From the IMG/VR virus record IMGVR_UViG_3300028840_003851: a stretch of DNA of 64,000 bases; one strand, written 5' to 3'. Positions 6,401 through 44,480 of the stretch are shown here, one piece after another. The stretch's first letter is position 1. Every line of letters starts with the position of its first letter. The stretch comes from a virus. The translations under genes were made by a program, and so were the position numbers. The notes beneath the pieces were generated by a model. The model was given only the letters and a program-made list of their open reading frames with translations, had not been told where the DNA came from and did no database searches.

Positions 6401-9400
6401 TGAGCCATGCCTTTAGGGACGGGCATCTCTTTAAGCTTCTTCTGCTGCGTCGCTAGCTCCTTGTTTACGTCTATCTTGTCTAGAAGGCGCTTTATCCCCG
6501 GTCCCCCCGTTAGAGCTCCAGGAGTGTCTAGAGCCACTATGTTTCCCTTCTCGTCTACCGCCTGGTCACCGCCAACAATACCTGTGTAATCCTTCTCTTT
6601 CAGGCCGGTTAGCTTCTGAATCGCAGTCTCGAAGACAGGGTTGGGTACGGGCTCTGCTAGCTTGATGTGGTTCCACCTCTTACCGCCGTGACCGCCTGTT
6701 ATCTTGGGGTCGAAGAGACCCCCTCTCTTAGGGACGGGCTCTCCGTTCTTATCTAGCTTTGTGTAGACAAGCTCAGCGGGCTTAGGAATTGCCCCGCTGG
6801 ACATGTCCTTTATCTGCTTATTCGTAAGCGGCAGAAGCTGTATGTTGTGGCCCTTCTTCTCTACATTGACGCCGGCCGCCTTCAACATCGATGTGAACTT
6901 GTTGAAGGAGAACGTTGGGCGGGGGGTAGGTAGAGGGGTTCCAGACTGTATCGCAGACCACACCTCTCTGTGCTGGCCTGCCCAGCCAAAGGGTCTGGGG
7001 TCGTCTCCCTCGCTCTTGATGGTCTGCATCTCCCTGATATTTGCCTTGGCCCCGTGCGCCAACAGGGAGTAGATGCCCAGTGGGCTCATGCGCTGCCCGC
7101 CAGTCTTCTTCCCACCTATAGGTAGAAGGTTGTTGTCGTAGCTCTCTGGCTCGTTGTCGCCTTTTAAGGGCATGCCTGAGCGTACCGCTGTCTTCTTGTC
7201 TATCTGATGGGTCAGCTTTAGCATGTGCTGGGGGCCCACGAGAACCTTCCCCAGACTCTGCTTGGTGACGGGGTCTATGAGCTCCTCCTTGTCCTCGATG
7301 CCATGCTCCTTGAGAGCCTTCTTGACCATCGCAAGGTTGTCGGCACCGGGTGCGAAGTTCTCCACAATGAATGGCTTGCCAGTCTTCTCTGCTACCTTCC
7401 CTGCGGCCGTCTCTAGTATCTGAGACGGGTTCATTCTGCCGGGAACTCCTGCGGGGTTGAGGGCTACATCGATGGGCTTACCATCCCTCGTATGTGGCAT
7501 CTCCTTATCTGGGAGGACACAGTTACCAGACCACACTGGGATGCCCAAACGACGCACGTAGATGATGTGGTTAGGAACGTCGACGCAGTAGACCCTCCCC
7601 TTGTACTCTTCCCAGCGCTCGTTACAGTACCTCTTATCGTTGTTCGTCCACACCTCGTCTTTCAAGGACCACCGAACGACAAGCTCTCCAGGCTTAGGCT
7701 CCTTAATGTTTGCAGAGAACCCTAGCTTCAAAGCTAGCTCCTGATAGTCATCAGCTAGCCTAGGGGAGGAGGTAAACAGCTCATAGCGAGTGTGGTTGTC
7801 CTTCGCTCTATAGTAAACACCACCGTCCCCCATAAACAGCGCATCAGCCAAAATCCTAAGCTGTCTCTGCGAGAGTACGAGGAGCTCACGAGGTATGAAC
7901 TTATCCTTAGCCTTACCGAACTGCTTTAGCCATGCGTGAAGCTGGGGGTCGGAGAAGGTAATCCTAGTAGCCTCTTTATAGGTACTGTACCCGAGTCGCT
8001 CAATCACGGAGCATATTCGCTCATATTCCTCTGGGTGTACGCTGCGAGTCTGCGCGATGTGTATGTGGGAGCTACCTCCAATACACCCCTCTGTAAGCCA
8101 AAGCCCGAAGAGCTCCAAAAACAGGTCTGTGTCGTACTTCCTAGGGGCAGAGAGCTTCTTGTGCCTCTTGGGGGCGTCTGGTCTACCAGGGATAGTAATC
8201 TCCTCGAGCTCCTCCCCCTCCCATACCCCAGTGCGAAGGTGTAACCGAGGCATCCCAAAACACTCCTTCGCAGGCTGTAGGGAATAGCTGCCCCTACGAG
8301 TACGAACGTAATGACGATGCTCTGGTGTCACCAGTAGGTTGAGTCTACGACCGCTATACGAGTACATCTTCCCGTCATGTTGCTGGTCAACGTACCCAGT
8401 AGGAGCTTGGTACTCAATCTTCCTGGTCGCCGGGTTGAGCGTACAAATCAGCTCCGTCCGGTCTAGGTCCTTGAAGAACCTCCAGCCCTTATCGGTTAAC
8501 ACCTCGGAATCATTAGAGAAACATGTTACAATCCCTTTGTTTCCATGACGCCCAGTCAGCTTATCCCCCGCTTTCATAGGCTCCACGGTCTTTACGTGGA
8601 CCGTTACCTCCTTGCCCTTCTTGTGTACCCCTACCACCTCCCCAGGGTGGTCAGACTCCCAGCGCAGAGAGATGTCTGTGTGCTGTCCGGACAGGCTCTT
8701 GCCTATGGAGCCCAGGTCCATCCTGTCCTTCATCTTGTACGGACGCATGGCTAGGACCAGAGGGTCTCCCGGCCTTACTGTCTGCCCTACCTTCACGACC
8801 CCCTTCTCGTCTAGCTTACCGTGCTGCTCCTTACCGAATGCCTCAGGGTGCTGGTTCCTGAACTTCTTGGGATCTGTGACAACCTGGTCCTCAAGGGCTA
8901 TAGGGAGCTTCTGCATGTGCACTGAGGACAGCTTCTTTGCCGCGCTCTCACTAACTACAACGCCATCCTCGAAGTTGTACCCCTTGTAGGGTAGATAGGC
9001 CGCTCTAAGATTTGTACCTAAGGCCAGCTTACCGTCTTTGGTAAAGTTCGTGTCCGCTACAGACTGCCTTCTCTTCACACTGTCCCCCACCTTTACCAGG
9101 GGGGTGGAGGTGATGACGGCTTTAGGGTCGTTCAACGGGAAGTTGTTGTACAGCTGTACCTCGTGCTTCTTCCCAGACTTATCCTTAACGACGATGGCGT
9201 CGCCCTTAACGCTTACTACCTCTCCGTCGACGGGAGACATGTGCCCTGACGCTTTACCTAGTAGCTCCTCGAACGTCTGTAACCCCTCCTTCTTAGAGCC
9301 CGTACCTACCTGTACTAAGGGGGCCTCTCTATGCTCTAAGGAGATAGACTGCTCTATGTGCTGCCCAGCGTATGTAGCTCTGTTCCCGGAGCAGCTGCCG

Positions 9401-41680: not shown

Positions 41681-42224
41681 GGAGACAGCGGAGAGTATTG
41701 CAGAGTTCTGGGACATCGCTGATGAGATAGAAAGTGAGCTATTTGAGCAAGGGTTCAAACCTTTCCCGATGCCCAGCGTAAACGCTCCCATAGTCACATC
41801 AGACATCCTAACAACCCTAAATGACAGGGAGTACACAGCCAATTTCGCATCCATAACACAGTGGCATGCGTATACCTCAACACAGCTAGCAAGAGTTAAG
41901 GTCAGACTCTACGGGATTCAAAATGCCATGAAGCACATGGAGACCGCCATCCATGAGCTAGAGCGCGCGGCTGCAGCAGACCTAGGGTCCAAGAAGCCTA
42001 CAGCACTAGAGCTGAAGGAAGCCGTGCTGCGAGACCCTGCATACCTGAAGCAGCGGCGAAAAGAGCAGGCAGCCCTGAGCCAGAAGGAGTACCTCGAGAA
42101 CTACGTGAAGATTCTAGAGAAGGCTGGAGGAGTGTTCTCTCGACAAGTGGAGATACGAAGGCAAGAAAGAGAGCAACAGCGAGTAGACGCTAACATGCCT
42201 TTAAGGGGCGGGTACCGTAGATGA
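41670..42224 (+). CDS. Coiled-coil protein, possibly a recombination mediator
   Basis: Helical sequence located among recombination genes. Confidence 0.55.
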   Translation: MLDKETAESIAEFWDIADEIESELFEQGFKPFPMPSVNAPIVTSDILTTLNDREYTANFASITQWHAYTSTQLARVKVRLYGIQNAMKHMETAIHELERAAAADLGSKKPTALELKEAVLRDPAYLKQRRKEQAALSQKEYLENYVKILEKAGGVFSRQVEIRRQEREQQRVDANMPLRGGYRR

Positions 42225-42811
42225 TTCACATCATCCTGCCGTACCTACCCCCTACTACTAACAACGCCTACATCACCAAAAAGAAGAGGTCAGGGGGGAA
42301 AATAGTAACGTTCCGCACGCTGTCAAAGGACGGCGCGCTTTTCAAGAGCTCGGCTACCGTAACCCTCCTATCGGGGGGTCTAGTACACATGAGAGGAAGG
42401 AAGGACAGAGCGTACGGGCTTGCGCTACTGTTTGTGTTCGAGAGCATCTACAATAGCGGATGGCCAGGAAGGACAAAAAACAGGTATAAGCGAACCGACG
42501 TCACCAATAGAGTCAAGCTTCTAGAGGATTGCGTGGCGTCTGCATCAGGAGTAGACGATAGTCAGTACTTCCCTATACTGTTGAGCAAGACAGAGGGAGA
42601 CAAGGAGTGTACGCACGTGTGGATATGGGATACAGAGGAGGAGCCTGATGGGGCCAGAAAAGCTCTACGAGCTGTTGACGCAGTGCAACATTACGGAGCT
42701 CTACCAGAGAGTGAGCCAAGCGGGAATCAGGGCGCACCCCCTGTCCACGAAGGAGGAGCTAGTGGACATGCTCCTGACCGGAAAGGCAGGAGCGGTAAAC
42801 CCCCTCGATGA
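42221..42811 (+). CDS. RusA-like Holliday junction resolvase
   Basis: LPPTTNNAY and DVTNRVKLLEDC...GVDDSQ motifs. Confidence 0.75.
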   Translation: MIHIILPYLPPTTNNAYITKKKRSGGKIVTFRTLSKDGALFKSSATVTLLSGGLVHMRGRKDRAYGLALLFVFESIYNSGWPGRTKNRYKRTDVTNRVKLLEDCVASASGVDDSQYFPILLSKTEGDKECTHVWIWDTEEEPDGARKALRAVDAVQHYGALPESEPSGNQGAPPVHEGGASGHAPDRKGRSGKPPR

Positions 42812-43013
42812 GTGGAGAACGAACATCATGCTGTTCGTTCTCCATCACTGGGAGAAGCTAAGACCGCAGCTCGGCGGGTGTGCTGCTAGTACTAGAAGAC
42901 CAGACGCCTGCTTTTACTGCACCGACATGCAGGTAATTGCCTGCCTAGCCATCGAGAACGAGAACAACATAGAGGAGATAAGAAAGCATGGAACCCACAA
43001 AGATGACGGTTGA
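42648..43013 (+). CDS. Hypothetical protein with Rho-N/SAP-like helical motif and Cys cluster
   Basis: NITELYQRVSQAGI...TKEELVDML; C..C..C in the C-terminal half. Confidence 0.55.
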   Translation: MGPEKLYELLTQCNITELYQRVSQAGIRAHPLSTKEELVDMLLTGKAGAVNPLDEWRTNIMLFVLHHWEKLRPQLGGCAASTRRPDACFYCTDMQVIACLAIENENNIEEIRKHGTHKDDG

Positions 43014-43770
43014 GACCATCCCGCGAGACCTTCAGAAGCTCATCGGCGTTCAGCCATACATCAGAGGTCGAATAGCCGGCAAGATTGGAATGTTCGGTAA
43101 GGGGGACGATAAGGAGTCCCAGATGGAGATGTACCTTGCATTCTTGGCTATGAAGGACAAGGAGCAGTCAGAGGAGCTGCTAAGAGCTCTGAATGAGTAC
43201 GACGCGGGGAAGGATGTGACGATGATGGAGTACGTGGAGCAAGAGCCTGCTAAGGTCCCCACTGCTCCCTCAGCCCCTAAGATGGCAGAGGAGAAGAAAG
43301 AAGAGCCCGCAAAAGAGCCACAGAAGAAACCGACGCAAAGCGATGAGCAGAAGCCAGCAAAGACTAGAACTAAGAGAGGCAAGGCAAACGGAAAAAGCGC
43401 TGAGCCAGTGGACCTATCCCCGCCTAAGCTTCCTCCTGGGTTCCCCACAAGCTTGCCGGAGGGGCCCGCAGACAGGCCCAAGAAGAGCTCCCCAACCCCG
43501 GGGGTGTCTCCCTCAATGATATCAGACCTCGTTGAGGAGGTGCGTAGATGCAATGAGCGGGTAGAGGAGCTCTCTGCAAAGACAGAGGAGATTAAATCCG
43601 TAGCGGGCAGCAGCATGGCCCTTCTTATGTGGACGTACTTGTCCCTGTTCAGCAACAACGAGAAGGTAAGCGTAAGCTACCTTGTTGAGTGCATAAAGGG
43701 AGTGATAGGAAGAGGGGAGCTAGAAGCCTTCATTGAGGGCACTAGAAACCACAAGCCCTCGGGAAAATAA
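42988..43770 (+). CDS. Hypothetical protein with P/K/E-rich linker; candidate -1 frameshift extension to 43964
   Basis: 260 aa; ends at slippery site G GGA AAA TAA. Confidence 0.75.
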   Translation: MEPTKMTVETIPRDLQKLIGVQPYIRGRIAGKIGMFGKGDDKESQMEMYLAFLAMKDKEQSEELLRALNEYDAGKDVTMMEYVEQEPAKVPTAPSAPKMAEEKKEEPAKEPQKKPTQSDEQKPAKTRTKRGKANGKSAEPVDLSPPKLPPGFPTSLPEGPADRPKKSSPTPGVSPSMISDLVEEVRRCNERVEELSAKTEEIKSVAGSSMALLMWTYLSLFSNNEKVSVSYLVECIKGVIGRGELEAFIEGTRNHKPSGK

Positions 43771-43804
43771 TTGCGCCCCCCTGGCCTGGGTGCACGGCTC
43801 CAGG
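43761..43804 (+). promoter_or_regulatory. Candidate -1 programmed ribosomal frameshift signal
   Basis: In-frame G GGA AAA heptamer (43761-67); stem 43772-78/43788-94; loop CCTGG pairs with CCAGG (43800-04). Confidence 0.7.
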
Positions 43805-43951
43805 AGACGACGACCTTATTACTGCTACCAAGGACGTAGACTCCATGAACAGCGAGGAGCTGAGCGCCCTGGCCAGAGAGCTGGGGCTCATCACCAACGA
43901 CAAGCCTCCCATAGAGGTGGTAAGAAGGAGACTGAGAGAGGCGGTAATAGA

Positions 43952-44266
43952 ATGGGAGAGGTAGCACAATCCAGCAGCTCTGAGCTCAAAGAGGCTGCAC
44001 AGACGGAGACATGGAGGTACGGTAGATACCCTATACCGCCTGCAGAGCAGCTGTGTCCTGGGGAGCCTGAGTGGGAGCCTGGCACATCATGGTGGATGTG
44101 CCCAAGATGCGGGCATGTTGGCCGCGCTCCGTACTTCGGGCATTACGCCGCTAGAGAGCCCGTCCCGCGTAGGACGGAGAAGAAGGGATGGGGAAGAGTC
44201 GCGATGGCCGTGGCGCCATTGATAGCGGCGTTAGCAAGCCTGCTTACACTAGCGCGTAGAGGATAG
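43952..44266 (+). CDS. Small protein with CxxC and C-terminal membrane anchor
   Basis: CPRCG motif and hydrophobic C-terminus; ATG 43952 preferred over the track start. Confidence 0.5.
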   Translation: MGEVAQSSSSELKEAAQTETWRYGRYPIPPAEQLCPGEPEWEPGTSWWMCPRCGHVGRAPYFGHYAAREPVPRRTEKKGWGRVAMAVAPLIAALASLLTLARRG

Positions 44267-44270
44267 CTTT

Positions 44271-44299
44271 AAGGCGGGCTCACCCCCGCCTTTCTTTAG
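44271..44299 (+). terminator. Terminator ending the replication operon
   Basis: AAGGCGGG-N6-CCCGCCTT followed by TCTTTAG. Confidence 0.7.
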
Positions 44300-44480
44300 C
44301 TACAGAAACCACACGGGGGCTGGACCTGTTCGCATCTGACTGCTGGATGGTAGGTGATGGAAGGTCCTCCGGAGGCTCTACGAGCTCCTCCTCTGCCTCT
44401 AGAGGTCCTAAGCCGCGGCTAACCGTGAGACGCCCTAGGCCGAGCCTAAACCCCCTGGACTGGAACCCTAGAGAGCTCAT
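44280..44480 (-). CDS. Small hypothetical protein
   Basis: ATGA overlap with the upstream virion gene. Confidence 0.45.
   Translation of the reverse strand: MSSLGFQSRGFRLGLGRLTVSRGLGPLEAEEELVEPPEDLPSPTIQQSDANRSSPRVVSVAKERRG

Follow-up and report, generated by a model that had tools for sequence, protein, structure and literature searches.

A conserved slippery heptamer and -1 frame relation point to ribosomal frameshifting in an orphan gene of a phage recombination operon

Introduction

The 64,000-nucleotide (nt) stretch of viral DNA analysed here, IMG/VR record IMGVR_UViG_3300028840_003851 (hereafter the window), belongs to an uncultured phage of about 178 kb, the longest contig of which has 178,578 bp. 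Within its recombination operon, a gene for a protein of 260 amino acids (aa) ends with the codons TCG GGA AAA TAA, and the seven nucleotides before the stop codon form a potentially slippery heptamer. The question raised by this locus is whether a part of the ribosomes changes to the -1 frame at this point and thereby adds a C-terminal extension to the protein, or whether the following DNA is a spacer with a small gene of its own. An original prediction made from the letters of the window had proposed a -1 frameshift yielding a short and a C-terminally extended isoform, and this proposal is supported by the heptamer, the -1 relation and a translated linker, all of which are conserved in three further lineages. 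We consider it likely that programmed -1 ribosomal frameshifting on a heptamer X XXA AAA yields mostly the short isoform and a smaller share of a long one, the latter carrying a flexible linker and a helix-extended-helix module. The mechanism as such is already known; what is new is a conserved case in an orphan gene of a recombination operon. The elements of the junction are as follows.

42988 to 43770, plus strand: zero-frame gene for the 260-aa protein, taken from the list of open reading frames (ORFs); orphan family
43761 to 43767, plus strand: slippery heptamer G GGA AAA, in X XXY YYZ register with ORF 42988-43770; candidate site of a -1 tandem slip
43768 to 43770, plus strand: zero-frame stop codon TAA, abutting the heptamer; would end the short isoform

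Frameshift genes annotated in tailed phages are concentrated in virion assembly: 2397 of the 2476 joined (frameshift) genes in the SEA-PHAGES set encode tail assembly chaperones (PMC10885494), and the other annotated cases are mostly capsid or tail extensions. The heptamers C_CCA_AAG and also G_GGA_AAG shift very readily in E. coli, and viruses of haloarchaea use this heptamer class in their G-T genes (PMC5009743). Conservation of such a site in a gene of the type described here would mean that recoding serves phages in adjusting isoform ratios in processes other than virion assembly, and that loci of this sort are currently misannotated by gene callers, which report a short orphan gene with an 'intergenic gap' behind it or only a tiny ORF.

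The heptamer and the -1 frame

Inspection of the DNA confirmed the starting point of the original prediction: G GGA AAA is located in frame directly before TAA, and the -1 frame, which is open from position 43746, continues to a TAG at 43962-43964, 65 codons past the slip site. The 77 ORFs of the window contain 57 in-frame XXXYYYZ heptamers, 20 of which have A or T at the Y positions. G GGA AAA at 43761-43767 is the sole one of these 57 that lies at most 10 codons from a stop codon, and likewise the sole one whose -1 frame adds at least 30 codons. By chance, about 0.08 canonical heptamers abutting a stop codon are expected in the window. Taken alone, this rarity within the window is suggestive; it is a post-hoc observation, and a comparison with relatives must therefore decide.

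Several other sources of the frame split were tried and rejected. Transcriptional slippage was dismissed, the run of A residues being just four long, as was stop codon reassignment or readthrough, since the extension is located in the -1 and not in the zero frame and the 77 ORFs occupy 95% of the window under translation table 11. A sequencing or assembly error was ruled out by two matching assemblies, one from sediment and one from seawater and originating from two studies, which are identical over positions 42900-44300 at about 28x depth without any indel; the run of four A residues is therefore genuine.

Conservation of the frame relation in four lineages

Four lineages of this tiny gene family were compared at the DNA level: that of the window (together with L001) and the three metagenomic lineages L002/L003/L005, L004, and L006/L007. 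One extra lineage was reached by searching with the better-conserved gene downstream, which encodes 104 aa. All lineages share the same gene order, consisting of a RusA-like gene, a gene of about 120 aa, the homologue of the 260-aa protein, a 'gap' of about 190 nt, a Cys-rich gene of about 100 aa and a convergent operon. In each of the four, the 'gap' holds an ORF homologous to the window extension (36-42% identity), and in each this ORF is in the -1 frame with respect to the upstream gene. Measured against this upstream gene, the frame of the following gene varies (+1, +2, +1 and 0, as derived from the coordinates). Frames at this locus are thus free to drift, and that of the extension has not drifted.

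Conservation of the heptamer in related phages had been proposed as a check of the original prediction. In all four lineages an in-frame X XXA AAA is present in the short zone where the open -1 frame still runs alongside the zero frame, before the stop codon of the latter; homologues lacking the signal were thus not encountered among these lineages. L006/L007 have G GGA AAA directly before TAG, in the same layout as in the window. The heptamer is C CCA AAA in the two other lineages, where it is located 2 codons before TAG (L002/L003/L005) or 23 codons before TAA (L004). In L004 the heptamer is immediately preceded by a TGA in the -1 frame, so that the open -1 frame starts precisely with the slip site. 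Canonical in-frame heptamers have a background frequency of about 0.001 per codon (19 in about 20,000 codons of the window and 4 in 5,609 codons of the relatives). For permissive zones of about 7, 28, 26 and 86 codons, the chance of finding one is about 0.007, 0.03, 0.02 and 0.08, respectively, and the joint chance is of the order of 1e-4 if only the two heptamer types are counted as independent events. The change from Ser/Lys-Gly-Lys to Asp-Pro-Lys alters the encoded residues while the heptamer stays slippery, and this switch from G GGA AAA to C CCA AAA provides a natural 'covariation' argument. The signal, the frame relation and the translated linker described below are conserved in four diverged lineages. 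Furthermore, the L002 type is represented by three independent assemblies and the L006 type by two, so the frame split is not an assembly artefact.

The conserved split also bears on the idea that the locus is a decaying remnant, in which an ancestral single ORF was broken by a deletion of one nucleotide and the downstream part is not expressed. It is true that the two frames would be joined if the A-run had one A more. Against this stands that the split is kept in four lineages at 23-42% protein identity and with two different heptamers, that the downstream part is open and under purifying selection, and that the assemblies agree; a remnant is barely credible.

Further relatives were searched for by several routes. 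None was obtained in IMG/VR scans with the downstream gene, the extension or the RecA-like protein, in a scan of GTDB genomes, or in a tblastn search of phages with the downstream gene, and a scan of metagenomes returned just one more copy of the L002 lineage. Longer proteins that contain the 65-aa extension as an in-frame domain were searched for and not found, which is weak evidence. Two side observations concern possible additional members. The protein P0004, a fourth homologue, ends with Leu-Gly-Lys-Phe-Ser-Ile-Lys-Lys, in which Leu-Gly-Lys, as read from the protein alone, could correspond to G GGA AAA, and its contig has an uncalled gap of 190 nt before the next gene. The contig ERZ1426844 carries, 5' of P0009 (a homologue of the 104-aa protein), a 320-aa gene at 434-1396 and a 47-aa gene at 1426-1569. 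Judged from the coordinates alone, the offset of the latter is again -1, and the contig may represent a fifth lineage.

Coding character of the linker

Between the zero-frame stop codon and the first ATG of the extension, the -1 frame contains a linker whose translation distinguishes a frameshift from two ordinary genes.

43767 to 43844, plus strand: linker in the -1 frame, 26 codons; no canonical start codon; would be read only by ribosomes arriving in the -1 frame
43845 to 43964, plus strand: helix-extended-helix module, 39 codons and TAG; conserved motif and helices in an AlphaFold2 (AF2) model; ATG 43845 is also a possible start codon

The coding potential was scored with a three-frame codon model trained on other genes and is given as log-likelihood per codon. 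In the -1 frame the window linker scores 0.367, which corresponds to the 71st percentile of genuine in-frame chunks of 26 codons and exceeds every off-frame chunk as well as the highest score (0.037) among 17 upstream intergenic segments, each read in the frame of its gene; of stop-free linker shuffles, only 0.06% attain this value (p = 0.0006). The linkers of the relatives score 0.339 in L002 (p = 0.0015), 0.182 in L006 (p = 0.09) and, for the part past the zero-frame stop, 0.305 in L004. The aligned linker columns of the four lineages contain no stop codon in the -1 frame and eight in each of the other frames, and substitutions are least frequent at the second and most frequent at the third codon position. 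Counted back from the ATG column, a conserved Trp residue stands 21 codons away in three of the four lineages and 16 codons away in L002; next come Pro or Gly (CCT, CCC or CCA), a D/N-L-I/L block and an acidic block. Within the 12 codons preceding the ATG column, 15 of 31 pairwise-identical residues are specified by different synonymous codons, and the swaps in the linker include TCC/AGC for Ser and CTT/CTC/CTA/TTG for Leu; selection therefore acts on the protein and not on the RNA.

Judged by codon usage and substitution pattern, the 26-codon linker is coding. At the same time, start codons are mostly missing from it: in the window and L004 there is no ATG, GTG or TTG in the -1 frame 5' of the conserved part of the linker, and L002 has a single -1-frame TTG, 75 nt upstream and inside the gene. 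L006, unlike the other lineages, has a GTG and an ATG 3-6 nt after the heptamer. Ribosomes would therefore have to be delivered into the -1 frame at the junction by a mechanism that is common to the four lineages, and the conserved heptamer is the obvious candidate.

RNA structure after the heptamer

Stimulators of -1 frameshifting are usually a 3' stem-loop or pseudoknot at a distance of about 5-9 nt or a 5' sequence resembling a Shine-Dalgarno (SD) sequence. The original prediction had included a hairpin and an H-type pseudoknot at this position.

43772 to 43794, plus strand: candidate hairpin of 7 bp (43772-43778/43788-43794) with one G.U pair and a spacer of 4 nt; present in the minimum free energy fold; not supported as a stimulator

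The stem and the complementarity between its loop CCTGG and CCAGG at 43800-43804 are thus real features of the sequence; the stimulatory role was not borne out. The region is no more stable than shuffled sequences (z = +0.11 for 100 nt and +1.8 for 70 nt), and 17% of shuffles likewise show a 5-bp match of the loop to the 36 nt that follow. A pairing equivalent to CCTGG/CCAGG was found in none of the relatives, whose hairpins have spacers of 4, 2 and 13 nt and z values of -1.0, +0.5 and -0.3 and are not homologous. No consensus RNA structure was found across the four lineages, and an Rfam search of the region gave no family near the threshold. Some phage sites, such as that of lambda G-T, need no stimulator (PMC5009743). 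We regard the site described here as presumably stimulator-less like lambda G-T, or at least as one with no demonstrable stimulator.

Proposed mechanism

According to the reading that we prefer, most ribosomes would terminate at TAA 43768-43770 and release the 260-aa protein. A fraction would slip by -1 on G GGA AAA, with the tRNA-Gly in the P site moving from GGA to GGG and the tRNA-Lys in the A site from AAA to AAA. These ribosomes would resume with ATA at 43767 and translate 65 codons up to TAG 43962-43964, giving a long isoform of about 324 aa whose additional part would comprise a linker of about 25 residues rich in Pro, Gly and Asp and the helix-extended-helix module of about 35 residues. 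Since no stimulator is evident, as in lambda G-T, the efficiency of slippage is predicted to be low. The body shared by both isoforms may oligomerise via a long helix, and the sub-stoichiometric long isoform could anchor the assembly on DNA or on a partner. The slip, how efficient it is, the binding of nucleic acid by the extension and a joint action of the two isoforms are what we infer.

A further conceivable aspect is that the frameshift serves regulation and does not set a fixed ratio. In two lineages the stop codon enters the A site right after A AAA, and slippage would therefore compete directly with the release factor, so that the share of the long, nucleic-acid-tethered isoform could track the termination and translation state of the host in the course of infection. 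If true, the principle known from prfB would recur here with a -1 shift and in a non-structural phage gene; we consider such a regulatory function rather improbable.

Alternative explanations

A number of points weigh against frameshifting and have to be set against the evidence given above. The evidence for a trans-frame protein is wholly comparative, and it comes from only four lineages, which share ancestry and are not fully independent. The A-site codon is AAA and not AAG, the most slippery one in E. coli, and a stimulatory RNA structure is not detectable. Moreover, every lineage has a purine-rich SD-like block and a canonical start codon at or within three codons of the ATG column. In the window the block is the following.

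43820 to 43824, plus strand: SD-like AAGGA, 5' of ATG 43845; duplex energy -6.0 kcal/mol, window median about -6.9

Its place is taken by a GAGGGA motif in the relatives, and the start codons at the ATG column are ATG, ATG and TTG, with a TTG three codons upstream in L004. In L006, the GTG and ATG near the junction are accompanied by AAGGGA as a possible SD sequence. In some lineages, the extension may therefore come at least partly from independent initiation.

These initiation signals are the basis for a reading with two ordinary genes, in which the 260-aa protein ends at TAA, a 39-aa protein is made only from ATG 43845 via AAGGA, the 74-nt spacer does not code for protein and the heptamer is there by accident. 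This is exactly the arrangement annotated by gene callers, with a 39-aa gene on a sister contig; the SD strength of AAGGA is average for the window, and the start codon and purine block recur in four lineages. A weak sigma-70-like promoter match at 43743-43771 (TAGAAA, 17 nt, AATAAT; 9 of 12 positions) fits as well; it overlaps heptamer and stop codon, and for the scanned region chance predicts about 0.8 matches of this kind. Two separate genes do not account, however, for a spacer that scores as coding in the -1 frame and is free of stop codons in all lineages, for the Trp, Pro and D-L-I residues 5' of the ATG that are conserved through synonymous changes, or for the retention of the -1 relation and the heptamer in all four lineages while the frame of the next gene drifts. 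In addition, L004 has CTC at the column of ATG 43845. Production of the downstream part only from ATG 43845, one of the outcomes that would refute the original prediction, is thus contradicted by conservation at the protein level 5' of that codon, and the two-gene arrangement is unlikely. Additional initiation at ATG 43845 is possible, and a 39-aa product may be made from it beside the frameshift product.

The start codons close to the heptamer in L006 lead to a second variant, in which the whole extension of about 60-65 aa would be a separate gene translated by termination-reinitiation or from a non-canonical start codon at the junction (GTG/ATG after TAG in L006, ATA/ATT at 43767-43772 in the window, with GGGA as SD sequence). 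The GTG and ATG of L006/L007 are located 3 and 6 nt past the heptamer, one gene caller annotates a 60-aa gene there, and GGGA is placed 5-8 nt 5' of these codons. The window, by contrast, offers just ATA/ATT, and L002 and L004 have no usual start codon between the junction and the conserved Trp. In L004 the junction is located 23 codons inside the upstream gene, where termination-reinitiation cannot apply, and the heptamers of the C CCA AAA lineages would be left unexplained. A junction start as the general explanation is very improbable, and frameshifting on the heptamer remains the preferred reading.

The protein and its extension

According to an AF2 model, the 260-aa protein consists of an N-terminal four-helix domain (helices within residues 11-72, predicted local distance difference test (pLDDT) 74-88), a disordered segment of about 90 residues (83-174) rich in Lys, Pro and Glu, a long C-terminal helix of 47 residues (175-221) and two short helices. 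A K-R-G-K-A motif within the disordered segment is common to three of five family members. No assignment for the body was obtained from Pfam, PHROG, PDB folds (Foldseek) or the Atlas. A word search of 5.8 billion proteins with the 260-aa protein matched only the protein itself, and neither tblastn against 50,697 phage records nor IMG/VR scans with the protein and with an alignment yielded relatives. An exhaustive phmmer search over 1.8 billion representatives gave three distant homologues with 22-33% identity.

The extension contains the motif L-A-x-x-L-G-L-x-T-x-D-x-P ... R-R, which is conserved in the four lineages. An AF2 model based on the four-sequence alignment (pLDDT 63) has helices at residues 29-38 and 49-59 with local pLDDT values of 66-72, joined by an extended connector of 10 residues, which together form a module of about 35 residues. 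The extensions of the four lineages had no match at E <= 10 in Pfam, including Rho_N, SAP, HeH and LEM, and no match to PDB sequence profiles even at E = 10. Such short motifs often escape curated sequence models. A Foldseek search with the model gave nothing significant (E >= 1.2), and the best rows of VIA-align, belonging to SAP, Rho-N and LEM domains, had Z scores of 3.3-4.0 and root mean square deviations of 2.8-3.6 A over 40-47 residues. Both lists are dominated by SAP domains (Hcc-1, Tho1, E1B-AP5, 3'hExo, FAN1), the Rho N-terminal subdomain, the emerin LEM domain and the SAP-like C-domains of MANF/CDNF. The best structural neighbours are the SAP domains 2do1, 2wqg and 1zrj, Rho-N in 1a8v and 1pv4, and the emerin LEM domain 6ghd. 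Of the 'Rho-N/SAP/HeH-like' C-terminal domain that had been proposed, the two-helix model with SAP, Rho-N and LEM neighbours stands; the low Z scores, the pLDDT of 63 and the negative Pfam and PDB searches weaken the family label. The modelled likeness to SAP/HeH/Rho-N domains is weakly supported, and on the same basis the extension may bind nucleic acid.

Relation to known frameshifting systems

The closest parallel is lambda G/GT (G GGA AAG), which likewise has an X XXA AAR heptamer at the end of a short ORF and no obvious RNA stimulator. In both cases, two products share the N-terminal body, the longer one probably being the minor product, and diverged phages retain the site while the protein sequence drifts (PMC5009743, PMC10885494). 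The locus described here differs in its position in a recombination operon and not between tail tube and tape measure, in the A-site codon AAA instead of AAG, and in its extension, a helix-extended-helix module of about 35 residues compared with the tail-tube-binding T domain of lambda. The possibility that the gene is itself a tail assembly chaperone of the G/GT type was tried and rejected on homology and position: a comparison of the five family members with PHROGs and Pfam gave only phrog_1038 for one member (E = 0.35), RusA-like and Cas4-like genes are located upstream, and the 104-aa gene and a terminator downstream.

With the dnaX tau/gamma system the locus shares the setting in DNA metabolism and the formation of two isoforms from one gene; it resembles a rarer variant of that system in which a -1 shift occurs, the zero-frame stop codon directly follows the site and the long form, carrying extra modules, results from frameshifting (PMC5009743). 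The gene is not homologous to dnaX, and the E. coli gene has A AAA AAG, an upstream SD sequence and a strong downstream stem-loop, neither of these stimulators being evident here. As in gene 10A/10B of T3/T7, Lactobacillus phage A2 and the Listeria phages A118/A500, a late -1 shift would add a small accessory domain to some of the molecules (PMC5009743). The latter examples concern virion proteins, often extended by an Ig-like domain and sometimes with a pseudoknot as stimulator, whereas the present gene is a non-structural orphan with a helical extension. Finally, the modelled extension has two short helices, an extended joint of about 10 residues and a Leu-Gly-Leu turn after helix 1 like the SAP, LEM, HeH and Rho N-terminal modules, and differs from them in the missing Pfam or PDB sequence match at E = 10, with Foldseek E-values above 1 and Z scores of 3-4. 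The practical impact of these findings is limited.

Genomic context

The assignment to a replication/recombination operon in the original prediction agrees with the gene content. A UvsX/RecA-like gene, a Holliday-junction resolvase, a Cas4-like exonuclease and a RusA-like gene are located 5' of the gene at 42988-43770, and helicases and a DNA polymerase are found farther 5' of the recombination genes. The operon is completed by the following elements.

43952 to 44266, plus strand: downstream gene for a 104-aa protein; begins, with its ATG, within the extension (overlap 13 nt); Cys-rich WEPGT-WW motif and hydrophobic C-terminus
44271 to 44297, plus strand: intrinsic terminator with an 8-bp G+C-rich stem followed by TTTCTTT; -15.6 kcal/mol, z = -2.82; closes the recombination operon

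The 104-aa protein has an invariant C-x-G-E..W-E-P-G-T-x-W-W-x-C-x-x-C-G motif, is always encoded 3' of the frameshift gene, and is represented by just five clusters among 5.8 billion proteins. Upstream, the RusA-like ORF 42221-42811 and the next ORF (121 aa, from ATG 42648 to 43013) have 164 nt in common. It is the 121-aa form that is kept in L006/L007 (2656-3021), where the overlap with the RusA-like ORF is just 44 nt, and the C-terminal residues of the window RusA-like protein (about 50) resemble out-of-frame sequence. A profile comparison of the extension with the 121-aa protein revealed no similarity; judged by eye, the N-terminus of the latter has a helix-extended-helix-like motif.

The terminator at 44271-44297, which was missed by a simple terminator scan, separates the plus-strand recombination operon from a convergent tail-fibre operon on the minus strand. 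Major tropism determinants, to which the Mtd_N domain belongs, are the usual target of diversity-generating retroelements, and in L002 the convergent tail-fibre operon includes a gene with an Mtd_N domain at 7553-7928.

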